Source: Nitrospirales bacterium (GTDB lineage Bacteria; Nitrospirota; Nitrospiria; Nitrospirales; UBA8639). Taken from it: a stretch of 64,000 nt of DNA. The DNA lies in assembly GCA_965223315.1 (NCBI GenBank), contig CBDCWD010000004.1:875759-939758 (forward strand), written 5' to 3'. The notes under the pieces were generated by a model, which was given only the letters and a program-made list of their open reading frames with translations, made no database searches and was not told where the DNA came from. Positions within the stretch are counted from its first letter, which is position 1; the number at the start of each line of letters is the position of its first letter. Made by a program: the position numbers and the translations under genes. Below, piece by piece: positions 15,413 through 55,101 of the stretch.

Positions 15413-15429
15413 TTAATGTCGAAATTATC

Positions 15430-15524
15430 GAGTGCCTGACTCTTACGTTGAAACCAGGGTCGGTATCAATGAAAGCCGGTTTCTGTTTCTGGAATCTATT
15501 CCAGTAACAAGGACCGGTTTTTTT
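15430..15524 (+). promoter_or_regulatory. Structured 5' leader ending in an intrinsic-terminator-like hairpin (attenuator/riboswitch candidate)
   Basis: Arms 15471-15495 and 15498-15522 pair at 23/25 positions on the + strand (4 G-U); T7 run at 15518-15524; 110 bp before the SulP ATG. Confidence 0.55.
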
Positions 15525-15633
15525 GTCCTGATTTGTTGCAATCAACAATGTGTCTCTGTCATGACTCACGCCATCGGTAGGCCGAGATCAATATAGCGGA
15601 CAAACATTCTGACTTACTTCCTCCCGTCTCATC

Positions 15634-17271
15634 ATGCCCCCTAGCGTAAAGGACATTCCTAGAGGCCAGATTTCCGAATTCCCGAAGCATTGGCAACCCG
15701 ATATGATTTCGGGGTTTCTGGTGTTCTTGATCGCTCTTCCGCTGTGCCTAGGCATTTCCCTGGCCTGTGGCTATCCTGCCATAGCGGGCATCTTTACCGC
15801 GATTATCGGTGGAGTATTGGCCACCTTTTTTAGTAATTCAGAGCTCACCATCAAAGGGCCCGCGGCGGGACTCATTGTGATCGCCCTAGGATGTGTCACG
15901 GAATTTGGGTTTACAGGTGGGGAAGACCCTGCTGCTGACCTTCAAGCGTATCGCTTGGCCCTTGGCGTTGGTGTCGCCGCTGGATTGATCCAAATTCTTT
16001 TTGGAATCTGTCGCGCGGGAATTCTGGGAGAGTTTTTCCCGACCTCGGCAGTGCATGGCCTGCTCACGGCTATTGGAGTCATCATTATCGCCAAACAATT
16101 TCCGGTGGCCATGGGGTTGAGCCCAACAGGTACACCGTTGGAACTCTTGGCCAACATTCCACATTTTATTTTGAACATGAATCCCCTGGTTGGCCTCATT
16201 GGCGTGGTGAGTCTTGTCATCATGTTTGGGTATCCGTTTGTCAAGAATCCTCGGCTGAAGGCCATACCCGCGCCGATGCTTGTGCTGTGTATTACGGTTC
16301 CTTTAGCAATGTGGTTTGATATTGGGCAAGAGCAGACGTATGCTTTCCTAGGACAAGACTATCCATTGGGGAAGAATTTTCTGGTCGCGGTTCCAGAGAA
16401 TATGTTTTACGCCCTGACCTTCCCTGACTTTTCCGGTTTGGCGACGAGTATAGGGATAAAGTACGTGATCATGTTTGCGTTGATCGGCAGTATCGAATCC
16501 CTTCTCAGCGCAAAAGCGATTGATGAAATTGATCCATGGAAAAGAAAAACCGATCATGATCGAGATATGTTAGCGGTGGGAGTTGGCAATACACTGGCCT
16601 CATTTGTGGGCGGGCTTCCAATGATCTCGGAAATTGTTCGAAGCAAAGCCAATATTGACAATGGCGCACGCACTCGATTTGCGAATATGTTTCATGGTTT
16701 GTTTTTGCTGGGGTTTGTAGCGCTTGTGCCGGGTCTGATCAACCAAATCCCGCTTGCTGCTCTGGGAGCCATGCTGGTCTTTACGGGATTTCGACTAGCC
16801 TCCCCGCAGGAATTTCTCCATATGTGGCAGGTCGGCCGTGAGCAGTTTGTGATTTTTGTCTCAACGGTCATTGGAGTCTTGTCGACGGATTTGCTGATGG
16901 GTATCGCAATTGGCATTGGTGTGAATTTTCTCGTGCATCTCAAAAACGGAGCGCCTCCGAGGTCACTCTTGAAAACACAAGTGACGGTTGAACCGCAGGA
17001 ACGGGATGGCGTGGTTGTCCGGGTCAGGGATTCGGCGATTTTTAGTACATGGATTGGCCTGAAGAAAACCTTGGAGCCCCTCATGACCGAATCACGTGTG
17101 GTTCTGGATTTATCAGAGACGTTTCTGGTGGATCACACAGTTATGGCCAAACTCCAAGATATGGAAAAGGCTTTTCAGGAGCATGGTTCGACTTTAGTGC
17201 TGACAGGACTAGAACAGCATCAGCGACTCTCCAGTTACCCCACTGCTGCAAGGAAAAAACCTCGAACATGA
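15634..17271 (+). CDS. SulP/SLC26 anion permease with STAS domain (second, divergent copy)
   Basis: DMISGFLVFLIALPLCLGIS, TIKGPAAGL and GGLPMISEIVRS motifs, typical of SulPs linked to carbonic anhydrase or DAB genes. Confidence 0.92.
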   Translation: MPPSVKDIPRGQISEFPKHWQPDMISGFLVFLIALPLCLGISLACGYPAIAGIFTAIIGGVLATFFSNSELTIKGPAAGLIVIALGCVTEFGFTGGEDPAADLQAYRLALGVGVAAGLIQILFGICRAGILGEFFPTSAVHGLLTAIGVIIIAKQFPVAMGLSPTGTPLELLANIPHFILNMNPLVGLIGVVSLVIMFGYPFVKNPRLKAIPAPMLVLCITVPLAMWFDIGQEQTYAFLGQDYPLGKNFLVAVPENMFYALTFPDFSGLATSIGIKYVIMFALIGSIESLLSAKAIDEIDPWKRKTDHDRDMLAVGVGNTLASFVGGLPMISEIVRSKANIDNGARTRFANMFHGLFLLGFVALVPGLINQIPLAALGAMLVFTGFRLASPQEFLHMWQVGREQFVIFVSTVIGVLSTDLLMGIAIGIGVNFLVHLKNGAPPRSLLKTQVTVEPQERDGVVVRVRDSAIFSTWIGLKKTLEPLMTESRVVLDLSETFLVDHTVMAKLQDMEKAFQEHGSTLVLTGLEQHQRLSSYPTAARKKPRT

Positions 17272-17302
17272 ACTACTGAAGAGTTCAAGGGGATCTGAAT
17301 CA

Positions 17303-20300
17303 GTGAGACAAGAAGTTTCGCCTTTGACTCAAGAAGAACGAACACTTCTGCACGATGTGATCGAAGCGGCCTGTGAGCCGATTGCACCGTTTTGGCCGAT
17401 GCGAACCATGGTGGCTCAGAATCCAATTCATGGTTTGGAATATCTCCCGTTCGATGAGGCTGTCCGGCAAGGAAAAGATCTGCTTGGAGGCAATGGATAT
17501 CTGTCAAATGAAGATTATCGGCGGTTGTATCGAGAGGGACGAATAACGTCCAACAGCATTCAACAAGCCTTAACCCATGTGGGTCCTCAGTCGCATACGC
17601 AAGATTCTATTCAGATCGGGGCGCAGCCAGTATCGTCTCAAGATATTTGGCGCTGGCATTTGGTGACTGGGTTTGAGGAGTTAGAGCCTGCTCTCTTGCA
17701 ATGGGAACTGAGTGGAGGCAGGGCAACCAAACAGTTTCGTTCAGATTTTCCTGCTGACTCTAAACAACGGATTGTCCAGCGCACCATCAAAGATTGTGAG
17801 CGATGTCGGGATTTTCCTGAAGAAGCCTATCTCACCAATCTGTGGAATGCGACCTTGAGAGCGTTAGGGCTGCATGAGTCTTCCTCAGAAAAAAATCATG
17901 GTCAAGAATCTTCATCAACTGTAGAACAAGAGAGCCGTGAGATACCTATTCACTTACCTGTTCAGCGAACGATGAGTGATTGGATTGAACGCTTGAGCGG
18001 TGTTCCGCTTGTCGAACAAATTAATAACCAGATGATCAAGTGGATTGCGGCTTTTGTTGACGAAGGATTGGCCGGATGGGAGATGCCACAAAAGCACAGA
18101 GGCTTTTTCCTCACGTGGCGAGAGCTTGTGCAATGGGATCACTCGGGCCATTTTCTCGGGATCTCTGATTTTCACCAAAAGGTCAGGGACCTATCTGATG
18201 ACCCGGAGGAGGTGATCGTTTCGTGCCTGCGCTGTTCGGGTGTCCCCCAAGCTGAATGGAAAGCCTATCTGTCGCGGGAGTTATCGCAATTGCCCGGATG
18301 GACCCGGTATATTCGATGGCTGGGAGAGCATCCCCGGTATCATGCTCAACGAAAGCAACCTATTGATGTGCGGCAATATTTGGCGGTTCGGCTGGTGTAT
18401 GAAGTGGAGCTCACTCAGGTAATCTGCCAAAGGGAATGGGGAATTGAAGGAACCGTCCCTGCATTGCAGGAATTTTGGGGAGAACGTGGTGGAGAGTACG
18501 AACACCCTATTGGGTTAGGCCGTTGTTCCGTCGATCCCATCACGCAGATGACATGTCGAGATGCTTGGCGCTTGTTTCATCTTGCTCAATGCTTAGAAGT
18601 TGCCCCCGCTGACATGCATGACCTTTCAAGGACAGACGCTCAGGTCTTATTGAGATGGCTTGATGCCTTTCCATCCGATTTGCACGGCCCAGTTTGGTTA
18701 GAGGCTTTGGAAGATTCCTTTCGCAAAGATATCCTGGGGAAACTCTCGCTCCATTGTCAGGGCGTGAAAGATGTCGATACGCGCCCGCAGGCCCAATTGG
18801 TGTTTTGTATCGATGTCCGCTCTGAGTCGTTCCGCCGTCATATCGAAGCACAAGGTCCTTACGAGACATTTGGCTTTGCGGGATTTTTTGGCATTCCCAT
18901 CAGTCACCAGGCCTTTGATAGCGAACAGCGGTCTGATTTATGCCCGGTATTGTTGACACCCAATCATGCTGTGAGAGAAGTCCCTCGATCTGAGGAAAAC
19001 GACTCTTTGCAGAGGTATTCTTCCGGTACTCGATGGTATCATCTTGGGCATCATCTCTTTCACGATCTGAAACATCATCCCATTGGTTCGATGATGGTCA
19101 TTGATGTCCTGGGTTTCTTTTTTAGTCTTGGGTTAGTCGGTAAAACGTTGCTTCAAAAAATATTTCGTGGAATCACGTCTACCATCGAAGATTGGTTCAC
19201 CCATCGTGTACGGACTCAGATCGCGGTTTCTGCCTCTTCGGACCCCACGCATCCGAAAATCGGAGAAGTGCATCCAGAAGGGATTCCCAGTGATCTGGCG
19301 CAAGGGTTTTCTTTGACGGAACAGGCGACGTTTATCGAAAACGGGTTACGGGCAATGGGGCTAACAAAAAATTATGCGCGTCTCGTCTGTCTTTGTGGCC
19401 ATGGAAGCGAGACGGATAACAATCCCTATTATGGCGCACTGGATTGCGGGGCTTGTGGGGGAGCGCCGGGGGATGCGAATGCGCGAGTTTTTGCCGCGAT
19501 GGCGAATTCACCTGACGTTCGCCGCGTTCTTGGAGAAAAAGGCCTGTCTATCCCCAGCGATACCTGGTTTCTTCCAGGGAAACATAATACGACGACGGAT
19601 CGTGTACAGTTTTACGATGTAGAAGATCTGCCGGATAGTCATCTAGAAGATTTACGTGTGTTGGAGAAGGATCTCAAAGAGGCCGGTGCGAACCAAGCCC
19701 TTGAGCGTTGTCATCGTCTTCCACATGCTCCCACACAAATTTCTCCAGAACATGCTTTGGCTCATGTGGAGGAGCGTAGTTGCGATTGGGCCAATACCCG
19801 GCCGGAATGGGGGCTTGCTGGCAATGCCGCGTTTTTAATCGGGCGACGCCGTCTCACGAAAGGGCTGGATCTGGGCGGGCGGGTCTTCTTGCATTCGTAT
19901 GATCCCATTGCGGACTCTGCGGGTGGCATCCTTGAGAAGATCATGACGGCTCCATTGATTGTAGGAGAGTGGATCAATACGGGATATTATTTTTCAGGAG
20001 CCGACCCATGGAAGTATGGAAGCGGCAGTAAGGTCTTGCACAATGTGGTGGGAGGTGTGGGAATGATGCTAGGAAGTCAAAGTGACTTACAAATGGGATT
20101 TCCTTTGCAGACCGTGAACGATGGAGACCGTCATTATCATGAGCCCATGCGTCTTCTTGCCATCATTGAACACACACCGTGTGTTATTTCGTCAATTATC
20201 CAAAAACATGGAATCCTTCAGCAGTTGTTTCATAATCAGTGGCTTCATCTTGTGGCGCTAGATCCTCATGCATATGAGTTTCATCAATATCATGCTGATG

Positions 20301-20332
20301 GGCGGTGGGAAAGGGTTTCTCCAACTGAGTAG
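17303..20332 (+). CDS. dabA: DabA (DUF2309) beta-carbonic-anhydrase-like subunit of an inorganic carbon pump
   Basis: IAPFWP..TMVAQNP N-terminus, FCIDVRSE (Cys/Asp), CGHGS (His), LDCGACGG (Cys), HNTTTD, RPEWGLAGNA and RVFLHSYD. All four Zn ligands are present. Confidence 0.95.
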   Translation: MRQEVSPLTQEERTLLHDVIEAACEPIAPFWPMRTMVAQNPIHGLEYLPFDEAVRQGKDLLGGNGYLSNEDYRRLYREGRITSNSIQQALTHVGPQSHTQDSIQIGAQPVSSQDIWRWHLVTGFEELEPALLQWELSGGRATKQFRSDFPADSKQRIVQRTIKDCERCRDFPEEAYLTNLWNATLRALGLHESSSEKNHGQESSSTVEQESREIPIHLPVQRTMSDWIERLSGVPLVEQINNQMIKWIAAFVDEGLAGWEMPQKHRGFFLTWRELVQWDHSGHFLGISDFHQKVRDLSDDPEEVIVSCLRCSGVPQAEWKAYLSRELSQLPGWTRYIRWLGEHPRYHAQRKQPIDVRQYLAVRLVYEVELTQVICQREWGIEGTVPALQEFWGERGGEYEHPIGLGRCSVDPITQMTCRDAWRLFHLAQCLEVAPADMHDLSRTDAQVLLRWLDAFPSDLHGPVWLEALEDSFRKDILGKLSLHCQGVKDVDTRPQAQLVFCIDVRSESFRRHIEAQGPYETFGFAGFFGIPISHQAFDSEQRSDLCPVLLTPNHAVREVPRSEENDSLQRYSSGTRWYHLGHHLFHDLKHHPIGSMMVIDVLGFFFSLGLVGKTLLQKIFRGITSTIEDWFTHRVRTQIAVSASSDPTHPKIGEVHPEGIPSDLAQGFSLTEQATFIENGLRAMGLTKNYARLVCLCGHGSETDNNPYYGALDCGACGGAPGDANARVFAAMANSPDVRRVLGEKGLSIPSDTWFLPGKHNTTTDRVQFYDVEDLPDSHLEDLRVLEKDLKEAGANQALERCHRLPHAPTQISPEHALAHVEERSCDWANTRPEWGLAGNAAFLIGRRRLTKGLDLGGRVFLHSYDPIADSAGGILEKIMTAPLIVGEWINTGYYFSGADPWKYGSGSKVLHNVVGGVGMMLGSQSDLQMGFPLQTVNDGDRHYHEPMRLLAIIEHTPCVISSIIQKHGILQQLFHNQWLHLVALDPHAYEFHQYHADGRWERVSPTE

Positions 20333-20374
20333 ACATGCAGGGAAGTGTTGAATAAATCTGAAGGTGCGATCTAA

Positions 20375-20902
20375 ATGACCAAAAACGTTGTTGGGCATGG
20401 GGCGCGGCCACGGCCGATTTCATCACAATTTTTGATCTTAAAGGCCACGGCACTATTCGTGTTGTGGATGATGTTATCGGCCCGTTTCGATTGGATCCAT
20501 CTTGGATTGGGCTTAGTCCTGTCTTTCGCGGTTGCCTGGATTAATTCCGGCCATTCTCCCTTTGTTCCCAAGTTTCGATTATGGGGCAATATCCTGCTCT
20601 ATCTTCCCTGGCTTTTTGTGAAAATCGTACAAAGTAGTCTTCACCTCTCAAAGCTGATTCTTCATCCCGCGCTTCCCATAAATCCTCGGCTAATCAAAGT
20701 TGAGACGAAGTTGGGGCATCATGCAGCCGTGGTGCTGCTTGGCAATTCCATTACCTTAACTCCCGGAACGATTACCGCAGAAGTGGATCGTAATACTCTC
20801 ATCGTGCATGCCATGGATGAAGTTGCCGCCGAAGATGTCACAAGCGAGCGGATTGAATCGAAAATTGCTGAAATTTTTAAGAATGAAGAGCCTGATTTGT
20901 GA
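20375..20902 (+). CDS. mrpE: Mrp/Mnh Na+/H+ antiporter subunit E
   Basis: LGNSITLTPGTITAEV and LIVHAMD motifs. Confidence 0.92.
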   Translation: MTKNVVGHGARPRPISSQFLILKATALFVLWMMLSARFDWIHLGLGLVLSFAVAWINSGHSPFVPKFRLWGNILLYLPWLFVKIVQSSLHLSKLILHPALPINPRLIKVETKLGHHAAVVLLGNSITLTPGTITAEVDRNTLIVHAMDEVAAEDVTSERIESKIAEIFKNEEPDL

Positions 20903-21165
20903 AAATATTTCTTCTCGGTGTCTTATTACTCTTAGCCCTCCTCATTGGTGTCTATCTTTATCGTGTGCTTCAGGGCCCTACAATTTTTGATCGCGTCCTG
21001 GGTCTCAATGGCATTTCCACCAAGGCGATCATTTTACTGATTGTGATGGGTATGTATTTTGAGCGAGTCGACATGTTTGTCGATATCTCGACGGGATATG
21101 CTCTCTTAAATCTAGTGGGAGCTCTTGCCGTCGCCAAGTTTCTGGAACAAAGAGGACTGCCGTAA
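20899..21165 (+). CDS. mrpF: Mrp/Mnh subunit F
   Basis: YRVLQGPTIFDRVL motif; overlaps the mrpE stop. Confidence 0.9.
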   Translation: MKIFLLGVLLLLALLIGVYLYRVLQGPTIFDRVLGLNGISTKAIILLIVMGMYFERVDMFVDISTGYALLNLVGALAVAKFLEQRGLP

Positions 21166-21166
21166 C

Positions 21167-21466
21167 ATGGAAGTGCTTGCCATAGGTTGTATTCTCGCCG
21201 GGCTATTTTTTTTGATTGTTGCGGCAATCGGCGTGATTCGCCTGCCCGATGTGTTTAGTCGGTCTCATGCGGTGTCACTTACAGACTCGTTGGGGGCCTT
21301 TTTGATGCTCGTGGGTGTGGCGCTTCATGAGGGCTTGAGCGCGAGTATGCTGAAAATCATAGCGGTCCTGGCACTACTGTACATCCAAAATCCGGTCATT
21401 GCCCATGCGACTGTTCGCGCAGCGCTTCGTGCTGGCTTGAAGCCCTGGAAAAAGGAGCATTCATGA
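21167..21466 (+). CDS. mrpG: Mrp/Mnh subunit G
   Basis: IGVIRLPDVFSRSHA and NPVIAHA motifs. Start set to ATG 21167, 1 bp after the mrpF stop. Confidence 0.9.
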   Translation: MEVLAIGCILAGLFFLIVAAIGVIRLPDVFSRSHAVSLTDSLGAFLMLVGVALHEGLSASMLKIIAVLALLYIQNPVIAHATVRAALRAGLKPWKKEHS

Positions 21467-21993
21467 TATTTTCCTATGAAATTCCCCTCCTGGTTTTACT
21501 GCTCGTGACAGCAGCCGGCGCGATCTTAGTCAAGGATCTGATGAGCGCCATCTTATTGTTGGGTTGCTACAGTTTTTTCCTTGCCTTGGTGTGGGCGTGG
21601 CTGGGTGCGGTTGATGTGGCGTTTGTCGAAGCCGTCGTTGGCGCTGGTTTAGCCACCGTGCTTTTCTTACTCACCCTATTTGGAACCGCACCAAAAGACA
21701 ATCGTCTCAGGCGGCCTCCGCCTCCGATGGCGGCACTGATTGCCCTTCCGCTTCTGGGAGTTCTGTTGCTCTATGCCGCAAACGATCTTCCAGAGTTTGG
21801 AGATCCACGTTCCCCGGCCAGTGTGCATATTTCACCGACATATCTCGAACAGAGTTATCCAGATTCTCATACGCCAAATGTCGTGACATCGGTCCTGATG
21901 GATTACCGGTCCCTTGATACCATGGTGGAAACGGTGGTGATTTTTACCGCAGGCATTGCTTGCGCACTATTGTTGCGGAGGCAACCCTCATGA
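21463..21993 (+). CDS. Mrp subunit: DUF4040 (MrpA C-terminal piece) fused to the MrpB N-terminal piece (MbhD/E-like)
   Basis: LGAVDVAFVEAVVGAG and TPNVVTSVLMDYRSLDTMVE motifs. Confidence 0.85.
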   Translation: MIFSYEIPLLVLLLVTAAGAILVKDLMSAILLLGCYSFFLALVWAWLGAVDVAFVEAVVGAGLATVLFLLTLFGTAPKDNRLRRPPPPMAALIALPLLGVLLLYAANDLPEFGDPRSPASVHISPTYLEQSYPDSHTPNVVTSVLMDYRSLDTMVETVVIFTAGIACALLLRRQPS

Positions 21994-22442
21994 TTCGCCC
22001 TCACGATAGTGTTATCGTGCAGACCTTAGGACGGTTTCTGATTCCGGTGATCCAGATTTTTGGTTTGTATGTGTTGTTTTTTGGCCAATATGGCCCTGGG
22101 GGAGGATTTGTTGGAGGGGTGATATTAGGCACCGGCATGATCTTATCGGTGCTCATTTTTGGCCACGATGCTTCCCGGAGCCAGATTGCGAAAAAAGTGT
22201 TGCACGGCGATGGAGTCGGCATGTTGATTTATGCCGGCGTTGGCGGATTGTGCATGATTGGCGGCGGGGAATTTCTCAACTATGCCAATTTGGAGATTCC
22301 GGGGCTTGAGACGGCTTCACGCCGATCTTTGGGAATTGTGTTGACGCAAATTGGCGTGGCTGTGGACGTGGCTGTGACGGCGGTGTCCATTGTCTTCAGT
22401 CTTTCTGCCGAAGAAATTATTGAGGATTCAATGAATGGGTGA
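21990..22442 (+). CDS. mrpB: Mrp/Mnh subunit B (MbhF-like)
   Basis: GQYGPGGGFVGG motif; ATGA overlap with the previous gene. Confidence 0.88.
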   Translation: MIRPHDSVIVQTLGRFLIPVIQIFGLYVLFFGQYGPGGGFVGGVILGTGMILSVLIFGHDASRSQIAKKVLHGDGVGMLIYAGVGGLCMIGGGEFLNYANLEIPGLETASRRSLGIVLTQIGVAVDVAVTAVSIVFSLSAEEIIEDSMNG

Positions 22443-22812
22443 TCTGTTTTCTGCCGTCTTTCAGCGCCCCAACTTTTTGACGTTTGTCATTATCTTCCTG
22501 TGGGGCTTTTATATCATGGTGACCCGGTACAACCTCGTCAAGAAATTGGTCGGATTGTATCTTGTCCAGACCAGCGTGATTTTTTTCCTGGTCTCTATTA
22601 GTGCGAAAAAGCACTCGACAGTCCCGGTCCTGCTGTCGACAACTGAACCTGTGCGAGCCATGAACTATGCGAATCCGTTGCCACATGTGCTGACGTTGAC
22701 AGCTATTGTGGTGGGTGTCGCCACGCTGGGTGTGGCATTGGCGTTGTGTGCGGCTATTTATCGACGATACGGCAGTCTTGATGAGGAAGAGATTTTAAAA
22801 AAACTAGAATGA
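22435..22812 (+). CDS. mrpC: Mrp/Mnh subunit C (NuoK-like)
   Basis: NLVKKLVGL and NPLPHVLTLTAIVVG motifs. Confidence 0.92.
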   Translation: MGDLFSAVFQRPNFLTFVIIFLWGFYIMVTRYNLVKKLVGLYLVQTSVIFFLVSISAKKHSTVPVLLSTTEPVRAMNYANPLPHVLTLTAIVVGVATLGVALALCAAIYRRYGSLDEEEILKKLE

Positions 22813-24278
22813 GGCATCATTTCCCAGCCCTGCTCTTTCTGTTCCCTTTGTTTGCCGCGATCGCCATGCCGGTTGTCTGTTTGAGGCACCGGCAGTGGAG
22901 CCGGCCCATCGCTCTCGCGGTGCTTGGCGCCATGGTTGTGGTCTCTATTCTGAATCTGAATAGCGTCATTAATGATGGAGAAGTGCGATATGCCTTCAGT
23001 GGCTGGATTGCACCATTAGGCATTGAGTGGGTCGCGGATGGATTGGCGAGTGTCATTATGGTGACGTTGAGTACGTTGGGTTTGCTGGCGTTGGTATTTA
23101 CCGGTCCCACTTCACCAAAAGATTTGGGGGGACGGATCGTTCATTATCATATCTTGATCTTGTTGCTTATTTCCGCGCTTACCGGAATCGTGTTTGCGGG
23201 AGATCTCTTTAATCTATTTGTGTTTTTGGAAGTCGCGGCCATATCCAGTTATGCGCTGATTGGTGTGGCCGGCGGGCGAGCGCTGTTTGCGGCGTTTCGC
23301 TACCTTGTGCTGGGGACGCTTGGGGCGTCTCTCTACTTACTGGGCGTGAGTTATTTCTACGCAGCCAGTGGCACGCTCAATATGGCAGATATGGCAGAGA
23401 AGCTTCCCCAACTCTTGACTTCCAAAGCGGTTGTGGGCGGGCTTCTGTTTATGTTCATTGGGTTGGGTATCAAGATGGCGTTGGTGCCATTTCATGCATG
23501 GTTGCCGGATGCCTATACCTATGCCCCCGAATCCATCTCTCCTATCTTAGCGGCATTAGTGACCAAAGTGGCGTTGTTAGGGTGGGTCCGCATTATTTAC
23601 TGGGTCTTGGGGGCTAAGGCCATTGTGTACGACATTCCCGTGCTCGTGCTCGTGGGGGTACTTGGCACTCTGGCAGCGGTCATTGGGGCGGTTCTGGCCT
23701 TGTCGCAGCGGGATATAAAGATGATGTTTGCCTATGGAGGAATTTCCCATATTGGCATCATTCTTATTGGCGTGAGTCAAGGGAATCATACGGGATTTGT
23801 CGGGGGTATTTTTTATTTACTAAACGATGCCGTGATGCAAGCGGCCTTGTTTTTTTTAGCAGGGGTCGCGATCTGCCAGTATGGCGTTCGGACTGTCGAG
23901 GATCTTGGAAAGATTGGGAAGCGCGCGCCTTGGTTTACGGGGGGCTTGGTCGTGGTGGCGTTGGGCATGATCGGCCTTCCTCCAACTGGGGGCTTTTTTG
24001 GAAAATGGTATATCATTCTCGGAGCGCTTGAAGCCAATAATTATATTGCGGTCGCCGCGGTTTTACTTTCAACTCTTTTGACGCTTGCCTATTTCGTCAG
24101 ACTATTTGAGGCGCTCTTTCGTCCGCTGGCCTCTGACTCGGAAACCGCATTCGGGGATATTCCGTTTCCGTTTAAACTGAGTGTGGGAGTAACGTCGGCG
24201 GCCGTCATGATCTTGGGACTGTTCAGCGACCCGATTGTTCAGTTTTTGTTGAATCAGGCTCTGCCACCAGGTATCTAA
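22809..24278 (+). CDS. mrpD: Mrp subunit D-type antiporter-like subunit
   Basis: GDLFNLFVFLE, KMALVPFHAWLPDAY, LVTKVA and GLPPTGGFFGKW motifs. Confidence 0.9.
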   Translation: MRHHFPALLFLFPLFAAIAMPVVCLRHRQWSRPIALAVLGAMVVVSILNLNSVINDGEVRYAFSGWIAPLGIEWVADGLASVIMVTLSTLGLLALVFTGPTSPKDLGGRIVHYHILILLLISALTGIVFAGDLFNLFVFLEVAAISSYALIGVAGGRALFAAFRYLVLGTLGASLYLLGVSYFYAASGTLNMADMAEKLPQLLTSKAVVGGLLFMFIGLGIKMALVPFHAWLPDAYTYAPESISPILAALVTKVALLGWVRIIYWVLGAKAIVYDIPVLVLVGVLGTLAAVIGAVLALSQRDIKMMFAYGGISHIGIILIGVSQGNHTGFVGGIFYLLNDAVMQAALFFLAGVAICQYGVRTVEDLGKIGKRAPWFTGGLVVVALGMIGLPPTGGFFGKWYIILGALEANNYIAVAAVLLSTLLTLAYFVRLFEALFRPLASDSETAFGDIPFPFKLSVGVTSAAVMILGLFSDPIVQFLLNQALPPGI

Positions 24279-24286
24279 CCAAGGCC

Positions 24287-26386
24287 ATGGCGATCTTTGT
24301 TCTCATCCCTTTGCTTCCTCTCATGGCTTCGCTTGTCCTTGTGCTTGGAGGACGACGATGGGGCGAGCACAGCCACCGAATTGGCATTCCTGCCATTGGT
24401 CTGTCTTTTGGTTTGTCGGTGTTTGCCTTTCTTGAGGTTCTGCGCCACGGGCCTTTCTCGCTCTCTCTGTATCGTTTCTTTCAGTCCGGGGCGTTGACCA
24501 TTAATTTCAGCCTTTATGTGGATCAACTCACGGTTCTCCTTTTGCTCTTGGTCACAGGTGTGAGCGCTCTTGTGCATGTCTATTCGTCTCGATACATGAT
24601 CGGGGACCCACGATACAATCGGTTCTTTGCGGTCATCGCATTGTTTACCTTTTCCATGGTGCTACTTGTCATGAGTGGCAATCTCTTGATGTTGCTCGTC
24701 AGTTGGGAGGTGATGGGTATCTGCTCATATCTCTTAATCTCCCATGCCGCACAAAGACCCTCGGCCGGACGGGCAGCGACCAAAGCATTCTTGGTGAATG
24801 CGGTGGCGGATGTGGGGTTAAGTTTTGGAATTATCTTGACCTTTTTTACATTCGGCACGCTCGACATTCAGACCATTCTCGCCCAGGCTGACAGCATGCA
24901 ACATCAGACGGTCAATATCATGGGATGGATCGGGGGCAATCTTGCTGTGAATCCCGTGACGTGGATTCCTTTCTTTCTGTTCTTAGGAGCCATGGGCAAG
25001 TCAGCTCAAATGCCCTTTCATGTATGGTTGCCATTTGCCATGGAAGCCCCTACTCCAGTCTCGGCGTTAATTCACGCGGCCACGATGGTGAATGCCGGTC
25101 CGTTCCTGCTCGTGCGGCTGAGCCCCTTGCTCGTCCTTTCTCCGTTCACCATGACATTCATTGCGGTCATTGGAGCCAGCACGGCGCTGTTTGCGGGTCT
25201 TGTTTCATTGACGCAGTCGGACATCAAAAAGATCTTGGCGTATTCCACGATTAGCCAAATTGGTTTCATGATCATGACCTGCGGTTTAGGTGCGTTTGTT
25301 GTGACGATCTTTCATCTCCTTGCTCATGGCTGTTATAAAGCGTTCTTTTTTCTGTCCACTGGTAATGCGCTCCGGTCGGTGGAGCCGGGTCGTGTCCATA
25401 GAGGAAATCATGAGCATCATAGTCCGCAGGGCATGGGAATGTTGTATGGGGGCGCGCTGGCCTTAGCGTTGATTCCTCCGATTATTCTGTTTTCAGGGGC
25501 ATATGAATACTTGTGGGGGGTAACGGGATTTGCCTCTGCCACAATGGGATTTCGCGTCATTGGTCTAATCACTGTCTTTGTGGCTTCTCTGTATCTTTTC
25601 CGAAGTGTCACGTCGCTATTTGTTTATGGTCCGAAGACGTATTGGCCGGTTTCCGGCCAATTGGGATCACAGACGCATTCCATCCGGCCGCAGTTTGTGA
25701 ATGGGGCGATTTTGACTGGGCTTTTCGTCGCCACTCTTGTCATCGGGGCGATGTTGACCCTGTTTTGGACGTGGTTTGCCAACTTCTTAGCTCCAGCGTT
25801 GATCTCACCCACGGCGGTGTTCCATGAAGGAACGGATAAGGCGGGCCTCTCGATATGGATGCTCATGGCTATTGGAATGGCGATTGCCGGATGGGCCTAT
25901 GCCTACTGGCAGGTTCAATCAGGCTCGCAGGTCGCAACAGCAGGCAGTAGGAACAAAAAGTTATACGTCCTCTTCTGGAATAAATGGTATTTTGATGAAT
26001 TCTATGATGTCTATGTGGTGAATCCCACCATTCGGTTTGCCGAATGGCTTTGGCGCTTCGTTGATGTGAATGTGATCGATGCATTCATACATTCCATCGC
26101 GACCTACTCCATTCTTTTGGCCCAGTGGCTCTGGCGAATCGTGGATATCAAAGGCATTGATCGAATGGTGATGGGTATCGGACGGCAGAGTGTTGGAATG
26201 GGCAGTTGGCTGTGGCAAGTGGTGGATATTCGATGGCTGGAACAGAGAGTCAGTCAAATGGGCAGACAAGCGGATACGGCAGGGCAACTCTTACAAGAGG
26301 TTGAACCTCGTACCCTCCAACACCAACTACTTGTCATGATATTTTGGCTGGTCTTGGCAACTGGGCTATTATATCTTTTGGTGTAA
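24287..26386 (+). CDS. NuoL/MrpA/DabB-family antiporter-like subunit with an extended lateral helix
   Basis: SWEVMG, GKSAQMPFHVWLPFAMEAPTPVSALIHAAT and KKILAYSTISQIG motifs; three 27-aa repeats in the C-terminal amphipathic helix. Confidence 0.9.
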   Translation: MAIFVLIPLLPLMASLVLVLGGRRWGEHSHRIGIPAIGLSFGLSVFAFLEVLRHGPFSLSLYRFFQSGALTINFSLYVDQLTVLLLLLVTGVSALVHVYSSRYMIGDPRYNRFFAVIALFTFSMVLLVMSGNLLMLLVSWEVMGICSYLLISHAAQRPSAGRAATKAFLVNAVADVGLSFGIILTFFTFGTLDIQTILAQADSMQHQTVNIMGWIGGNLAVNPVTWIPFFLFLGAMGKSAQMPFHVWLPFAMEAPTPVSALIHAATMVNAGPFLLVRLSPLLVLSPFTMTFIAVIGASTALFAGLVSLTQSDIKKILAYSTISQIGFMIMTCGLGAFVVTIFHLLAHGCYKAFFFLSTGNALRSVEPGRVHRGNHEHHSPQGMGMLYGGALALALIPPIILFSGAYEYLWGVTGFASATMGFRVIGLITVFVASLYLFRSVTSLFVYGPKTYWPVSGQLGSQTHSIRPQFVNGAILTGLFVATLVIGAMLTLFWTWFANFLAPALISPTAVFHEGTDKAGLSIWMLMAIGMAIAGWAYAYWQVQSGSQVATAGSRNKKLYVLFWNKWYFDEFYDVYVVNPTIRFAEWLWRFVDVNVIDAFIHSIATYSILLAQWLWRIVDIKGIDRMVMGIGRQSVGMGSWLWQVVDIRWLEQRVSQMGRQADTAGQLLQEVEPRTLQHQLLVMIFWLVLATGLLYLLV

Positions 26387-26412
26387 TCAACTTCCTGGAT
26401 AGGGGCCTGCTG

Positions 26413-27918
26413 ATGAGCATATTCACTGATCATATTATTAGTTGGATGATTGCGGTTCCCTTTTTAGGAATCGTTGCCCTTGCATTTCTCCGCGATGAAG
26501 AATGGATTCGCCGAATGGCTTTCGCCACAACGATGGCGGAGTTTCTGCTCTCGCTGATCTTGTGGAGGAACTTCGATTTCACTCAACAGGGTATGCAATT
26601 CGTTGAGCGTATGGAATGGATGCCTACCTTCAATATTCAGTATGCCGTTGGTGTAGATGGGATCAGCATCCTGTTAGTCATCCTCACCGCTCTTCTGTGT
26701 CCACTTTGCGTTCTGTGTTCGTGGAGTGCCATTACCACGCGGGTGCGAGCCTATTTGTCGTTGATTTTACTGGTGGAAGGCGCGATGATCGTCGTGTTTA
26801 CAGCCTTAGATCTTTTCCTGTTTTTCATGTTGTGGGAACTCACCATGATTCCCATGTATTTCATGATCATTCTTTGGGGAGGGCCCAATCGCATCACGGC
26901 GGGAATTAAATTTGTCTTGTACAGCTTGACAGGCAGTTTATTGTTGCTCGTGGGAATTCTTGGCCTCTACTTGGAAGGCGGACATACCTACGATCTGTTG
27001 GTTCTCAGCGAACAAACCTATTCCTCGAAGACACAATTCTGGCTATTCCTGGCGCTCTTTTTGGCGTTTGCCATCAAAATGCCCATGGTGCCTTTTCACA
27101 CCTGGTTGCCAGACGCACATTCCGAGGCCCCGACTGCTGGCAGCGTGATTTTAGCGGGAGTGCTACTAAAAATGGGGGGCTATGGATTCTTGCGCTTTTG
27201 CTTGCCGATGTTTCCCGAAGCCTCAGCCAAGTTTGCTCCGTATATATTATGGCTTTCGGTTATCGCCATTGTCTATGGCGGCTACATGGCGTTAGCGCAG
27301 ATTGACCTCAAAAAACTTGTGGCATACTCGTCGGTTTCACATATGGGATTTGTCACCCTTGGGATTTTTGTCTTTAACAGTCAGGGCATCCAAGGGGCCA
27401 TCTTGCAAATGTTCAATCACGGCATTACAACCGCCGCGCTCTTTATTTCAGTTGGTCAGCTGTACGACCGCACCCATAGCCGGGTTATCAGTGACTATGG
27501 CGGCTTGCATAAACCCATGCCGAAATTTGTGGCGTTTTTTTTCTTGTTCTCAGTTGCGGCATTTGGCCTGCCAGGCACCTGTAATTTCATTGGCGAGTTT
27601 TTGGTGCTGGTCGGGACGTCCTATGTGAATTTCGCCATGGTCCTGATTTCCATGGGAGGTATTGTCTTAGCGGCGGCCTATATGCTGTGGATGCTGCAAC
27701 GGTTGGCGTTGGGTGAGCCTTCCACGAAGGTGGCGGCAGTCCTTCCTGATCTCACCACTCGCGAGTTGGCCTCGGTGATTCCTTTGGCCATTGTTGTCCT
27801 GTGGATCGGGTTATATCCTGGCCCTCTTATGGAAATGATGGATGCAAGCGTGACGCACCTCGTTCAGCAGGTCGCTGCATACACATCCCCTCTTCCTGAA
27901 AACACGGTCCTGCGTTAA
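26413..27918 (+). CDS. NuoM-type antiporter-like subunit
   Basis: VGVDGIS, WELTMIPMY, KMPMVPFHTWLPDAH, LLKMGGYG, QMFNHG and NFIGEF are canonical NuoM motifs. Start set to ATG 26413. Confidence 0.92.
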   Translation: MSIFTDHIISWMIAVPFLGIVALAFLRDEEWIRRMAFATTMAEFLLSLILWRNFDFTQQGMQFVERMEWMPTFNIQYAVGVDGISILLVILTALLCPLCVLCSWSAITTRVRAYLSLILLVEGAMIVVFTALDLFLFFMLWELTMIPMYFMIILWGGPNRITAGIKFVLYSLTGSLLLLVGILGLYLEGGHTYDLLVLSEQTYSSKTQFWLFLALFLAFAIKMPMVPFHTWLPDAHSEAPTAGSVILAGVLLKMGGYGFLRFCLPMFPEASAKFAPYILWLSVIAIVYGGYMALAQIDLKKLVAYSSVSHMGFVTLGIFVFNSQGIQGAILQMFNHGITTAALFISVGQLYDRTHSRVISDYGGLHKPMPKFVAFFFLFSVAAFGLPGTCNFIGEFLVLVGTSYVNFAMVLISMGGIVLAAAYMLWMLQRLALGEPSTKVAAVLPDLTTRELASVIPLAIVVLWIGLYPGPLMEMMDASVTHLVQQVAAYTSPLPENTVLR

Positions 27919-29994: not shown

Positions 29995-31143
29995 ATGAAC
30001 ACGACGAAATGTATAGGTGCCCTGGTCCTTATTGTATGGATGTTTGGGGGGTGTGTGAGCCAACAGGCTCATGAACGGGCTATGGAAGAATTGGAAATGG
30101 CCAGCCAAAGTTCGGCTCAAGAAGTAGAGCGGTTGCAACGTATTGTGGAAGAACAGCAGTCCCAAGTCGTTCAACTGGAGGAGAATACGCAAGAGCTGAA
30201 GCGGGAGGTAGAAACGAAAGAGCAAGCCGTGGTCCAACTCCAGGAAGAAAATGTGGATTTAGTGGATGCTGTCAAAGTTCAAGAACAAGAAAAAGAACAG
30301 CAACTGGAAGCGGTGAAAGCCGAGTTGGAGAAACTCTATTCCGAGATTGCAGGCCTGCAATCGTTGACGGGGGTTGGTTCACTTTCCCGAGAGAGTCTGG
30401 AAGGGAGTGACCTGAATGATTTGGGTGGCATGGCTAGAGCCTTTCAGCAGGTTCGGGATAGCCTGAAGTCGCAAATTGACCATTTTTCTCAATTACAAAA
30501 GGACAATCAAGCCTTAGAGCAAAACCTTGTACAGCTAGAAGAACGTCTGAAAAATGTTGAGCGGCTGAAAAAGGAATTGGAAGAAGTGCGGGCAGCTCGT
30601 GCGGCGCAAGAGTCTCAATTGGCTCAAGTCAAACAAGAAGTCAATACTGTGAGCCGAGAAATTGATCGCATTACGCAAGCCTTAGAAGAAAAATTTGGGA
30701 AGAGTTTGGTCGTGACCCAACATCAGGATCGATTGGTCCTCACGATGCTAGGCCAAATCTTGTTTGCGTCGGGGGAAGCGCAACTCACCCCTCTGGGATT
30801 AGATATTATGAAACAGGTCGGGGAAGTTTTGGCCACCTTGCCAAATAAAAATATTCAAGTCGAAGGTCATACCGATAGCAACCCTATTTATGGACGACTC
30901 CAACAAAAATTTCCGACGAATTGGGAACTATCAACGGCTCGAGCGACGACCGTGCTTCGGTATTTGATTGAGCAAACCGGAATGGATCCTAAAGATTTTG
31001 CGGCGACTGGTTATGCTGATACACGGCCAGTGGTGGCGAACGACTCTGAAGAGGGGCGGGCTCAAAATCGACGTGTCGAAATTGTGCTATATCCAGAGAA
31101 AATTGTTGAAGAAAATAAAAAAATGGCAACGGTTGCCCAATAA
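29995..31143 (+). CDS. OmpA/MotB-domain lipoprotein with a long coiled coil
   Basis: FGGC lipobox, long heptad region, then VEGHTD, NWELSTARA, GYADTRP and NRRVEI peptidoglycan-binding motifs. Confidence 0.9.
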   Translation: MNTTKCIGALVLIVWMFGGCVSQQAHERAMEELEMASQSSAQEVERLQRIVEEQQSQVVQLEENTQELKREVETKEQAVVQLQEENVDLVDAVKVQEQEKEQQLEAVKAELEKLYSEIAGLQSLTGVGSLSRESLEGSDLNDLGGMARAFQQVRDSLKSQIDHFSQLQKDNQALEQNLVQLEERLKNVERLKKELEEVRAARAAQESQLAQVKQEVNTVSREIDRITQALEEKFGKSLVVTQHQDRLVLTMLGQILFASGEAQLTPLGLDIMKQVGEVLATLPNKNIQVEGHTDSNPIYGRLQQKFPTNWELSTARATTVLRYLIEQTGMDPKDFAATGYADTRPVVANDSEEGRAQNRRVEIVLYPEKIVEENKKMATVAQ

Positions 31144-31221
31144 CAGTGGCGGTTTCTGACGAAGTTTGCCCCTTGATATTTTCACTATTCAACACTCATA
31201 TAGTGCTAAATGCGCTTTTCA

Positions 31222-31255
31222 CCCTCACCCCAACCCTCTTCCTCAAAGGAGAGGG
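31222..31255. repeat. REP-like palindrome (CCCTCACCCCAACCCTCT...GGAGAGGG type), possible bidirectional terminator
   Basis: Lies between convergent genes; CCCTCT pairs with the downstream GGAGAGGG arm. Confidence 0.55.
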
Positions 31256-31302
31256 CGTTCTGAAATGTCTTAACTGAAAGTTAAAATACTCTATCAATTT
31301 AT

Positions 31303-32898
31303 TTAATGATGGGTTGAAACTCCCGTATCGCTGCTTGGCAGTGGATGATGCTCAATGAGGTTTATCTCATACAGGGCCGTGGTCGCCGGCCCTAAAAACA
31401 CATAGGCAGCCAGCAAACCCACCAGCGTCATGGTGATCGTGTAGGGCAGCGCCATCCACACCATTTTCCCGTAGGACAACCGAATGATGGGGGCTAAGGA
31501 TGAGGTCAAGAGGAACAAAAAGGCCGCCTGCCCGTTTGGCGTGGCCACACTGGGAATATTGGTTCCTGTATTAATGGCTACGGCCAGTAAGTCAAATTGA
31601 TCCCGCGTAATCGTGCCTGCCTGCAATGCTCGAAAGACTTCATTGATATACACTGTGGCGACGAACACATTGTCGCTAATCGATGACAAAATTCCATTGG
31701 CCAGATAAAACATCCCGATCTGATGCGTGCCGTCTAGGCTTAAACCATAGCCAATAATGCCTGCAAATAAATTCTGTTCCTGAATGACCGCCACAATCGC
31801 AAAAAAGACTACTAACAATGCGGTAAAGGGGAGGGCTTCAGTAAAAGCTTCGCCCAGTTGATGCTCCTCAATGATCCCATTCAGGGCCGTAATCAGGATG
31901 ATGACCGTGAGGCCAATGATGCCTACCTCAGCCAGATGGAAGGCCAAGGCGATAATGAGCCACACGCCGGCCAGTGCCTGCACGATGAGTTTGGCCTTAT
32001 CATCGTTATCTCTGCGCGCGGCTTGTTCCCGTTCATAGTCTACTAAAATATGCCGTACTGGCTCGGGGATTTCATAGCCATAGTCAAACCACTTTAGCCT
32101 CTCGACCACCAGGCACGTCGCTAAGCCCATCAGAAAGACCGGTAACGTAATCGGGGCCATGCGAAAGACAAACTCCATGAATTGCCATCCCGCCCGGTCC
32201 GCAATTAATAGATTCTGAGGTTCTCCGACCAACGTACAGACTCCACCCAAAGCTGTGCCGACCGCCCCATGCATCATGAGATTTCTCAGAAAGCCTCGAA
32301 AATTCTCTAAGTCAGTCCGGTTGAGCTCTTGGACGTCCTGATCACTGGTGTGGTCATGTGAGCTGGTGTAGGATTTTCCGGAGGCGACCCGGTGGTAGAT
32401 GCTGTAGAACCCTGTAGCCACGGCAATGATCACGGCGGTGACCGTTAGGGCATCCAAAAAAGCGGAAAGGAAGGCTCCCATCAGTGAAAACAGCAGCGCG
32501 AGCCATTGTTTAGAGCGGACACCCAGGAGGATCTTGGTGAAAAGAAACAAGAGAAGGTCTTTCATGAAATAGATGCCCGCGACCATGAACATCAACAAAA
32601 GGATGACCTGGAAATTATTCACCGTCTCATGGTACACCATGGCGGGGGTCGTCATACCCAGCAGGACGGCTTCCATGGCCAAAAGACCGCCTGGTTGGAG
32701 CGGATAACTCTTCAGAGCCATGGCGAGGGTAAAGATAAACTCCAGGATCAGCACCCAGCCTGTCACAAAGGGGCCAGCCAAAATGAGCAGGATAGGATTG
32801 ACCAGTAAAAATCCTACCACCGTCAGCTTGTACCAGGTGGGAGTGTGATTCAGAAAGTTCTGTGTCAGTTCCTGGGCAATGCTACGACTTTTCGGCAT
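31303..32898 (-). CDS. nhaB: NhaB Na+/H+ antiporter
   Basis: [44 protein letters not shown] and [24 protein letters not shown] motifs. Confidence 0.95.
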
Positions 32899-55099: not shown

Positions 55100-55101
55100 A
55101 G

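Follow-up and report, generated by a model that had tools for sequence, protein, structure and literature searches.

Gene cluster and family assignment

The 64-kb window (the whole stretch of DNA analysed) contains, on the + strand, an operon with the conserved order SulP-DabA-MrpE-F-G-(MrpA C-terminal piece)-B-C-D-NuoL-NuoM (Table 1). As the initial annotation had noted, only three antiporter-like genes are encoded here, and no other was found in the window. The NuoL-type protein has the domains PF00662 (7.9e-19) and PF00361 (2e-56), scores 480.2 bits for TIGR01974 (cutoff 407.5), and carries the extension of TM15, lateral helix (HL) and TM16, as a NuoL does. In the PDB, it matches chain L/ND5 of complex I best (about 1e-80), with DabB2 (9rd0_B) at only 3e-41. 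No NuoA-K, NuoN or other nuo genes neighbor it in the window, and the same was found in the 80 orthologous loci.

Table 1. Features of the DabA-Mrp-NuoLM operon and of the HL repeat, in window coordinates.
Feature	Coordinates	Strand	Remarks
SulP/BicA-type anion transporter	15634..17271	+	Cluster head; in many but not all orthologous loci
DabA	17303..20332	+	PF10070, 878 bits; 1009 aa
MrpE, MrpF, MrpG	20375..21466	+	MrpE 20375-20902; MrpF 20899-21165; MrpG likely 21167-21466
Free-standing MrpA C-terminal / MbhD-MbhE / NuoJ-like subunit	21463..21993	+	176 aa; DUF4040, PRK12504
MrpB	21990..22442	+	Likely ATG at 21990; listed ORF from 21960
MrpC / NuoK-like subunit	22435..22812	+	
MrpD/NuoN-type antiporter-like subunit	22809..24278	+	489 aa
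NuoL-type antiporter-like subunit	24287..26386	+	699 aa; PF00662 + PF00361; TIGR01974
N-terminal HL part, conserved	25949..26044	+	aa 555-586, ...LYVLFWNKWYFDEFYDVYVVNPTIRFAE; counterpart of E. coli NuoL around D542-P552
HL repeat unit 1 (U1)	26045..26125	+	aa 587-613, WLWRFVDVNVIDAFIHSIATYSILLAQ; aligned to the one HL segment of canonical NuoL
HL repeat unit 2 (U2)	26126..26206	+	aa 614-640, WLWRIVDIKGIDRMVMGIGRQSVGMGS
HL repeat unit 3 (U3)	26207..26287	+	aa 641-667, WLWQVVDIRWLEQRVSQMGRQADTAGQ; terminal, more polar unit type
Linker, TM16 and stop codon	26288..26386	+	Linker LLQEVEPRTLQHQ; TM16 is the last transmembrane helix and strap anchor
NuoM-type antiporter-like subunit	26413..27918	+	TIGR01972, 618 bits; 501 aa from ATG 26413, matching orthologues; listed ORF from TTG 26344

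The likeness to MrpA lies in the operon shared with MrpB-G and, as in the Anoxybacillus flavithermus structure (PMC7419157), in a NuoL-like core with HL and TM16 that braces MrpD and leads to the small-subunit domain. However, MrpA carries an MrpB-like/NuoJ-like C-terminal domain, TM17-21, in one polypeptide and has an HL that runs over one subunit, whereas here that domain is a separate upstream gene, the L protein scores as NuoL with all MrpA equivalog models far below their cutoffs (e.g., 240 vs. 937 bits), a NuoM is added, and HL is extended by repeats. With DAB1 and DAB2, the cluster shares a NuoL-like protein in one operon with a DabA that has conserved zinc ligands, although seven genes separate dabA from nuoL. 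DabB has about 550 aa, a short HL stub without the TM16 strap, and a remodelled TM12-15; in contrast, the protein here has 699 aa, its HL and TM16 are complete, and the PF00361 partners are a full NuoL, NuoM and MrpD, together with six small Mrp subunits. In alignment with DabA2 of PDB 9rd0, the DabA keeps the zinc-ligand motifs FCIDVRSE, GHGS and DCGAC, and hence the C, D, H and C ligands of a DAB-type protein, reported as C351/D353/H524/C539 (PMC13147460). Classical DabA/DabB pairs occur separately in L002 and L040.

Lateral helix repeat

Translation of 26045-26287 on the + strand gives three in-register 27-aa units (residues 587-667), identical to the three strings listed in the initial annotation. 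They lie within the C-terminal HL, or strap, of this membrane protein and are followed by a terminal hydrophobic helix. The similarity of the units is far above chance, with ungapped BLOSUM62 scores of 58 (U1/U2), 38 (U1/U3) and 67 (U2/U3), compared with a highest score of 30 among control 27-mer pairs from the same protein (n=141,778). Self-comparison of the protein peaks at offset 27 (score 133), with all repeat-unrelated offsets at 24 or below, and there are no indels between the three units. DNA identity among the units is just 32-40 of 81 nt, so the duplication is old in this lineage, and Tandem Repeats Finder reported no repeat on 25500-26800 because the units are too diverged in DNA; the scoring was done on the protein instead. 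Substitutions relative to close orthologues fall mostly at third codon positions (e.g., 6/4/31 against L002), and therefore the + frame is coding and under purifying selection. An antisense ORF at 25961-26287 was rejected as a gene and is considered a by-product, since the codon-position pattern and homology back the + frame only. In four Logan runs, the region 25800-26500 has the three-unit form with no 81-nt indels, as read from contigs from which rare variants drop out.

Alignment to the E. coli and P. denitrificans NuoL continues through the NKWYFDE.YD motif into unit 1, in agreement with the earlier identification of the repeated segment as the NuoL lateral helix, and a 20-residue segment of the P. 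denitrificans protein aligns to unit 1 in the PDB alignment. The three units are all diverged copies of the one HL segment found in canonical NuoL. Unit 1 is the counterpart of that segment, and thus the protein has about two extra units; past the aligned point, 47 residues remain in E. coli NuoL and 104 here. The E. coli counterpart segment begins at the D563/P564 kink, which is the point of HL-NuoM contact. In an AlphaFold2 monomer of the 699-aa protein, built from a 104-sequence alignment (mean pLDDT 60.6, HL 40-58) and used only for helix breaks as a weak hint, low-confidence DSSP predicts a break at the V-D of each unit.

Unit number across orthologous operons

In about 190 orthologues, the C-terminus lies 78, 105, 132, 159 or 186 aa beyond the YFDE.YD motif, in quantised steps, which confirms the 27-aa unit as a real module. 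The orthologous operons carry 1, 2, 3, 4 or 5 HL units, most commonly three (80 loci). From one to five units, the gene set is constant (DabA, MrpE, F, G, the A-C-terminal piece, B, C, D, NuoL and NuoM), and the antiporter-like genes of every one of the 80 loci are exactly MrpD, NuoL and NuoM; a search of the operon strand out to 10 kb finds no other PF00361 gene. Unit number has no relation to the length of DabA (996-1050 aa in all classes), MrpD (489 aa nearly everywhere, range 488-510) or NuoM (about 500 aa). With the gene set constant, unit number is not readable as a count of encoded pump subunits. The initial annotation had taken the extra units to imply extra pump modules, as extra copies or as subunits encoded elsewhere, and had suggested correlating repeat number with antiporter-like gene number in orthologous operons; at the gene level, the two do not track each other in the 80 loci.

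The copies come and go by in-frame 81-nt tandem duplication and deletion. Unit number changes at least 18 times on the 78-tip tree, and recent duplications leave copies with nucleotide identities of 81/81 (L075), 76/81 (L005) and 68/81 (L073). In 49 of 146 three-unit proteins, U1 is closer to U2 of the same protein than to orthologous U1s, a likeness that indicates turnover or gene conversion. Within clades, unit number is conserved, as with four units in 17 of 18 Nitrospira-type sequences. Among cultured carriers, Nitrospina gracilis and lineage-II Nitrospira have four units, and Nitrospira marina or a relative has three. Positions W1, L2, W3, D7, I11 and D12 of unit 1 have conservation values of 0.88-1.00 (104 orthologues), and the motif W-L-W-x3-D-x3-I-D is almost invariant in the non-terminal units. 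The terminal unit type (unit 3 here) is found in all orthologues with two or more units, and deletions of 3-13 aa are tolerated among orthologues in the C-terminal half of the last unit, which argues against a rigid ruler.

The one-unit state is found only alongside an alternative MrpE-D module (five of five one-unit loci), which has 70-92% identity inside the group and just 46-62% to the main type. The DabA of the one-unit locus L048 is 87-89% identical to that of its two-unit neighbors; HL/TM16 therefore co-varies with the E-D module. The cluster is carried by at least 80 species, which belong to Nitrospirota, Nitrospinota and a few other groups. It is conserved in nitrite-oxidising bacteria.

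Comparison with nuo operons and 2M complexes

A three-unit canonical-type NuoL (P0224) has no close relative in the genome collection; the control set consisted of the 80 loci returned with it (about 45% identity). Thirty nuo operons of this set have canonical tails of 75-83 aa, which, with the E. coli and P. denitrificans alignments, bears out the premise that a canonical NuoL has one such unit. Two-unit NuoLs were found in 27 control nuo operons, all genuine NADH dehydrogenase operons (NuoD/H/J verified), of which 25 are plain L-M-N and two have a second nuoM. The latter, L081 and L158, are arranged L-M-M-N with tails of 102-103 aa, and in both the ...D..[IV]DG.VNG... unit can be seen to occur twice, the insert being the second copy. 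This is the arrangement of 2M complexes, in which, following Chadwick et al. (2018) as relayed by Yu et al. (2022, PMC9040806), about one extra HL unit (26-aa inserts) accompanies a second nuoM; the lengthening by about one unit, stated in the initial annotation, is thereby corroborated. The protein in the window resembles a 2M-type NuoL in its HL insertion relative to E. coli and canonical tails. Nonetheless, it has two extra 27-aa units (up to four in relatives) instead of one, Mrp and DabA neighbors instead of a nuo operon, a copy number that varies, and no second nuoM in the window or in any orthologous locus, whatever the unit number.

A further parallel is Complex_I_1 and Complex_I_2 of 'Ca. 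Manganitrophaceae', which have an extra HL unit and three pump genes only (Yu et al. 2022, PMC9040806). In these and in the two-unit nuo operons of Acidobacteriota/Binatia, helix length and gene count disagree as they do here, but they are genuine NADH dehydrogenase operons with just one extra unit each, and they are not known to form a copy-number series.

Possible roles of the repeat

Here, it is tentatively proposed that the repeat is a modular, evolvable strap, which with three units would have the length to hold the entire Mrp-type arm together. The units would lengthen the amphipathic HL in modular fashion, and HL, which terminates in TM16, would strap the membrane arm. A canonical HL length would reach over NuoM and MrpD, and each extra unit, if helical, would add about 40 Å and continue the strap on the cytoplasmic membrane surface above the small Mrp subunits, with the A-C-terminal/B/C block under the first and the F/G/E block under the second. 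In the commonest, three-unit form, TM16 would be anchored near the far end and the entire arm of L, M, D and small subunits would be clamped, so that the repeats would set strap length and arm stability, not pump-gene number. In Mrp complexes, HL braces the complex and TM16 leads to the small-subunit domain (Steiner and Sazanov 2020). Against the strap, the small subunits are equal in size in one-unit orthologues, and thus spanning them is not obligatory; moreover, four or five units, at 120-160 Å past the canonical HL, would be too long for a monomeric arm, and they need another partner (a dimer mate or DabA) or must bend. The retention in each unit of the motif that contacts the antiporter-like subunit in E. 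coli would also count against the strap, being a prediction of a ruler that counts pumps.

In such a ruler, each additional unit would hold one more NuoM (or MrpD), made from the same single gene or supplied as a paralogue by another locus, giving from three pump modules with one unit to seven with five, and five in the complex of the window, the number arrived at in the initial annotation. The length of a unit is suggestive, as 27 aa at 1.5 Å per residue gives about 40 Å, roughly one antiporter-like subunit, and this fits the 26-aa inserts of 2M complexes with a second nuoM. HL connects the TM7 helices of successive antiporter-like subunits, and the WLWRxxD motif, counterpart of the E. coli kink that contacts NuoM, is kept in every unit, while the clade-stable number of four in Nitrospira-type sequences suggests selection on number. 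A single gene supplying several copies would make a change in gene content unnecessary, and Nitrospira genomes have more nuoL/nuoM copies elsewhere (Daebeler 2020). This reading is nevertheless unlikely. Gene content is constant whatever the unit number, nearly all two-unit NuoLs of real nuo operons are found with L-M-N only, and each of the numerous changes among close relatives would alter ion stoichiometry drastically. Non-integer variants exist, and in an ideal helix 27 residues make 7.5 turns, leaving successive units facing opposite sides unless each is kinked. We know of no complex-I-type assembly with several copies of one antiporter subunit, which also counts against it. The Shine-Dalgarno regions of D, L and M, compared for a sign of NuoM excess, have nothing distinctive. 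Less probable still is the strict form, in which unit number sets the count of NuoM (or MrpD) copies between NuoL and the Mrp small-subunit block, so that related nitrite oxidisers, with one set of eleven genes in common, would assemble DabA-coupled arms of three to seven pump modules, their ion:CO2 stoichiometry tuned by gain or loss of 81 nt.

The frequent gains and losses (including the pair identical at 81/81 nt), the own-protein likeness of U1 and U2, the tolerated partial deletions and the functioning of one gene set with one to five units are compatible with slack. The units would then be interfacial amphipathic segments joined by kinks, held by Trp-Leu-Trp anchors and foldable or zigzagging in the plane of the membrane surface, any number of which could bridge the distance from L to TM16, and the number would drift under weak constraint. 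The breaks that low-confidence DSSP places at each V-D, and the need for each unit of 7.5 turns to re-phase, agree with this. However, a motif that is near-invariant in all non-terminal units across deep divergence and the within-clade stability of unit number both point to specific contacts and selection on number, and none of the solved structures of complex I, Mrp or MBH is known to have a folded-back HL, which leaves slack a rather doubtful explanation. A platform for docking or oligomerisation, in which the extra cytoplasm-side units bind DabA or cross the MrpE-mediated dimer interface to a partner complex, would be in keeping with the location of HL on the same side as DabA, with the dimerisation of Mrp through MrpE at the end opposite MrpA, and with the overshoot of a monomer by four or five units. 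It is regarded as improbable: DabA length is independent of unit number, one-unit operons keep a closely related DabA, and L002 and L040 retain three units despite having no DabA in the operon.

Proposed function and significance

The whole complex would most likely hydrate CO2 in a DAB-like manner, driven by an ion gradient. DabA would be mounted on NuoL/NuoM, much as it is mounted on DabB/DabC in DAB1, where DabC is in the NuoM position and adjoins the NuoL-like DabB. A working analogy only is provided by the cyanobacterial NDH-1MS/MS' complexes, in which a CO2-hydrating module (CupA/CupB on NdhF3/D3 or NdhF4/D4) is attached to the two distal antiporter-like subunits of an arm of the complex I type; these are redox-driven, however, and the Cup proteins are unrelated to DabA. 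The DabA-Mrp-NuoLM association appears to be undescribed, with only 'extra mrp-like genes' or an orphan DabA mentioned in the searchable literature.

HL insertions in NuoL have served as evidence for extra proton pumps in complex-I-type enzymes. Since unit number here varies naturally from one to five while the gene set is fixed, and since most control nuo operons with an extra unit have no added pump gene, either this accepted inference needs qualifying or antiporter-like subunits stack from one gene, and either outcome informs the function of HL (clamp vs. ruler) and the evolution of ion stoichiometry. The host operon couples a carbonic-anhydrase-like DabA subunit to a full Mrp-type arm with NuoL and NuoM, and as such is a candidate novel type of pump for inorganic carbon among the main nitrite oxidisers of the sea.

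Genomic context of the NuoL-type gene

The NuoL-type protein of the window matches PF00662 and PF00361 and, at 480 bits, exceeds the cutoff of the NCBIfam model for NuoL (TIGR01974, 407.5 bits), and its gene lies outside any nuo operon, with DabA, Mrp genes and NuoM as neighbours. The gene order of this 11-gene operon is kept in about 80 species of Nitrospirales, Nitrospinota and a few others, the last being two MAGs from Acidobacteriota (L073, L075) and a third (L066) that is labelled Mariniblastus. The catalytic motifs of DabA are intact, and it retains the Zn-ligand motifs of DabA2 (FCIDVRSE, GHGS, DCGAC). As initially annotated, just three antiporter-like genes are encoded at the locus, and no further antiporter-like gene or other nuo gene was found in the whole 64-kb window.

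Features of the window
Feature	Position	Strand	Remark
SulP	15634-17271	+	head of cluster
DabA	17303-20332	+	PF10070, 878 bits
MrpE, MrpF, MrpG	after DabA, before 21463	+
Free-standing MrpA C-terminal/MbhD-E/NuoJ-like protein (Ac)	21463-21993	+
MrpB, then MrpC/NuoK-like	between 21993 and 22809	+
MrpD	22809-24278	+
NuoL	24287-26386	+	PF00662, PF00361, TIGR01974; 699 aa
27-aa units	26045-26287	+	three units, residues 587-667 of NuoL
NuoM	26413-27918	+
Whole operon	15634-27918	+	11 genes
Flank genes: OmpA/MotB-like, NhaB (minus strand), second SulP (SulP-STAS)	29995-32898 and 1661-3523
Signalling block	33490-54185		dense; HD-GYP-type response regulators, FIST protein, YfiR-like protein, TonB-dependent receptor, several hybrid histidine kinases with PAS/GAF/Hpt domains
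Pilus/secretion-type genes	54275-63981		secretin, T2SS-F, T2SS-E

The NhaB/OmpA-like pair is also present 3' of nuoM in the Nitrospira locus L056. A Logan contig of run X2 joins positions 26008 and 26440, skipping 431 nt (not a multiple of 3), and its shorter arm at the junction measures only 31 nt; it is probably a unitig chimera of related nuoL/nuoM sequences from a mixed community.

The repeated lateral helix unit

Translation of 26045-26287 on the plus strand reproduces exactly the three strings of the initial annotation. These 27-aa units align in register throughout, with ungapped BLOSUM62 scores of 58, 38 and 67 between them, against a highest score of 30 among 141,778 control 27-mer pairs of the same protein. 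Self-comparison of the protein peaks at offset 27 (score 133), and all repeat-unrelated offsets score 24 or less. The units share just 32-40 of 81 nt, which explains why Tandem Repeats Finder detected nothing in this region. Substitutions relative to close orthologues fall mostly at third codon positions, and therefore the plus frame is coding and constrained. An antisense ORF (25961-26287) was rejected as a gene, being an incidental overlap, with the codon-position pattern backing the plus frame. Among 104 three-unit orthologues, units 1 and 2 conserve W1, L2, W3, D7, I11, D12, S22 and V23 (0.81-1.00), and the last unit has a separate signature (L2, D7, W10, L11, Q21, G26).

The repeated segment corresponds to the lateral helix (HL) of NuoL, as had been proposed. 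Residues 4-595 align with residues 4-566 of the 613-residue E. coli chain in the PDB, leaving 104 residues vs 47 in E. coli, so that the window protein is about two units longer; the P. denitrificans NuoL segment aligns onto the NKWYFDE.YD motif and unit 1. In E. coli, mutagenesis locates D542, K551 and P552 in the initial portion of HL and a kink at P564, with L565 and N566 nearest NuoM (Belevich et al. 2011). The WLWRxVD motif of each unit maps to this kink and NuoM-proximal site, and thus canonical NuoL has one such unit, also as annotated.

Unit number across orthologous loci

The close homologues recovered by a protein search number 120 and belong to Nitrospina, Nitrospirales and Ca. Nitronauta. 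In 104 of these the tail, measured from the YFDE.YD motif to the C-terminus, is 131-133 aa long (three units); five have 105 aa (two units) and two, including N. gracilis, have 159 aa (four units), and a few tails are off-integer (119, 128-129 and 154 aa). The last unit shows natural deletions of 3-13 aa, all within its second, polar half. P0055 and P0067 (686-687 aa) have 'two and a half' units, their last unit lacking 13 aa (tail of 119 aa), and other orthologues are short by 3-5 aa there. The final unit is thus not length-critical, and these sequences indicate some slack before the final transmembrane helix (TM16).

For 80 genomic loci, one per species and with 10-kb flanks, every ORF was compared with the eleven proteins of the window.

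Unit number and tail length in the orthologous loci
Units	Tail (aa)	Loci
One	78	L044, L048-L051
Two	105	e.g. L019, L023, L024, L026, L066
Three	132	most loci
Four	159	L005, L032, whole Nitrospira clade
Five	186	L057, L073

The initial annotation had taken the two extra units to imply an arm of up to five antiporter-like modules, and predicted extra copies or subunits encoded elsewhere; at the gene level and within the 10-kb flanks, unit number does not track pump-subunit number, since loci with one to five units all have exactly three antiporter-like genes where coverage is adequate. The counts come from blastp against three references, which did pick up NuoN at 29-31% identity, and Pfam found no PF00361 among unannotated ORFs in the 10-kb flanks of representative loci of each unit class. 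The gene order DabA-E-F-G-Ac-B-C-D-L-M is identical in every locus with enough sequence. PF00361 genes beyond these occur only in L002 and L040, where each locus has a divergent DabA/DabB pair with a DabB of classical type. In these two loci the operon's own DabA is absent, the NuoL is nonetheless three-unit, and the classical pair (DabA of 837-902 aa, 32% identity; DabB of 566 aa) adjoins MrpE on its upstream side. In the five-unit Acidobacteria locus L073, a gene for a CPA-type Na+/H+ exchanger (PF00999, 4751-6199) overlaps the nuoM stop codon and appears co-operonic with it.

A neighbour-joining tree built from the NuoL core (78 tips) requires 18 or more changes of unit number, with sisters differing in number (two-unit L066 with five-unit L073; two-unit L024 with three-unit L052) and some clades uniform (four units in 17 of 18 Nitrospira-type sequences). 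Some adjacent units are 81/81 nt identical (L075), or 76/81 (L005), 68/81 (L073) and 67/81 (L036), and 49 of the 146 proteins with three units have a unit 1 that is closer to its own unit 2 than to orthologous first units; the units therefore come and go through in-frame tandem events of 81 nt. With two copies in place this mechanism yields 27-aa steps, so quantisation alone is no proof of a ruler. The identical pair of L075 (11747-11908) reflects either an in-frame tandem duplication of very recent date or an artefact in the assembly of that MAG.

Lateral helix units in ordinary complex I

A HMMER search with the HL tail against 1.84 billion representatives found unit duplication to be recurrent across the NuoL family, including canonical-type NuoL with two (P0184, P0192, P0265) or three units (P0224). 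P0224 is a metagenomic protein of 768 aa with a canonical-type 'KLQNGYIQNY' ending and a Gly/His-rich insert (…HGGGHAKEGDHGGGHGEEAAAHGGGGG…), and a search of the species-representative genomes gave no close relative. The control set comprised 80 ordinary nuoL loci related to P0224, weighted toward Acidobacteriota, with NuoD, NuoH and NuoJ neighbours confirmed for three. Of the 31 one-unit NuoLs (tails of 75-83 aa) whose flanks are adequate, 30 are in L-M-N operons. Of the 27 two-unit NuoLs (tails of 101-113 aa) in complete operons, two (L081 and L158) have L-M-M-N, which reproduces the 2M rule of an extra unit with an extra NuoM, but the other 25 are plain L-M-N. In this Acidobacteriota-weighted sample an extra unit is more often found alone than with an added pump gene, and the former is likewise reported for Manganitrophaceae Complex_I_1 and Complex_I_2 (Yu et al. 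2022, PMC9040806).

Eleven Acidobacteriota nuo operons with two-unit HL and L-M-N only (L088, L100, L108, L121, L126, L132, L141, L145, L146, L156, L159) have a second, convergent antiporter-like set (D, M and an L-like gene of ~460-560 aa) within 10 kb, several being cut by the contig end. In the Bryobacteraceae nuo operon of L110, also with two-unit HL, a NuoH-family gene (PF00146, 380 bits; 15167-16342) lies directly 3' of nuoN.

Possible roles of the units

The five one-unit loci share a distinct E-D module (MrpE through MrpD), 70-92% identical mutually and 46-62% to the module of the main type. In DabA and the NuoL core these loci stay near main-type neighbours (61-89% identical), the L048 DabA being 87-89% identical to those of two-unit L026 and L019. 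Their linker and TM16 also differ. In these sequences HL/TM16 type therefore follows MrpE-D module type, a pattern that would be expected were TM16 to dock on this module in the manner of Mrp and complex I (PMC7419157); it does not follow pump-gene number. The one-unit operons look chimeric, with an alternative E-D module about 50% identical to the main type, which suggests that this module was swapped together with the HL/TM16 end.

A helical stretch of 27 residues would be ~40 Å long, by our estimate about the width of one antiporter-like subunit, of the Ac/B/C block or of the F/G/E block. Here it is tentatively proposed, as the favoured reading of the sequences, that the units form a modular strap: the canonical HL length would span NuoM and MrpD, extra units would carry the clamp on across that half of the Mrp module which contains the small subunits, and the modal three units would tie the entire arm together. 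However, one-unit forms occur with small subunits of equal size, four or five units overshoot the monomer, and the units are acidic, yet the small subunits bear negative charge on their cytoplasmic face in Anoxybacillus Mrp (PMC7419157).

As 27 residues make 7.5 turns of an ideal helix, equivalent residues of neighbouring units would face opposite ways; the hydrophobic phases of the three units agree only at 106.7 degrees per residue, so each unit must re-phase, presumably at the kink, and a low-confidence AlphaFold2 model breaks the helix at V-D of each unit. That the units are slack or form a zigzag is a less likely reading. A ruler for pump subunits, which would agree with the NuoM-contact motif retained in each unit and with unit number conserved by clades, is left only in the form of homomeric stacking or of paralogues borrowed from elsewhere and is unlikely; docking of DabA or of a dimer partner by the units is more improbable still.

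The complex as a whole

In Ca. Nitrospira alkalitolerans a matching 'interesting genomic region' was described, in which the nuoL/M-like genes after mrpD were counted as additional mrp-like genes; the passages concerned are silent on both DabA and the helix (Daebeler et al. 2020); a 2025 Nitrospirales survey takes the same view of these genes. A 2026 survey lists one DabA of Nitrospira moscoviensis (printed 'muscoviensis') and one of N. tepida without a companion membrane gene, which may be the Mrp-linked copies. The DabA-Mrp-NuoLM coupling seems undescribed in the searchable literature. In DAB1 cryo-EM, DabA sits on the NuoL-like DabB and DabC occupies the NuoM position beside it; in DAB2 a DabA finger is inserted into DabB. 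A comparable seat for DabA may exist here, on NuoL/NuoM at the far end of an Mrp-type arm, and the assembly would then be an ion-gradient-driven CO2-hydrating machine.
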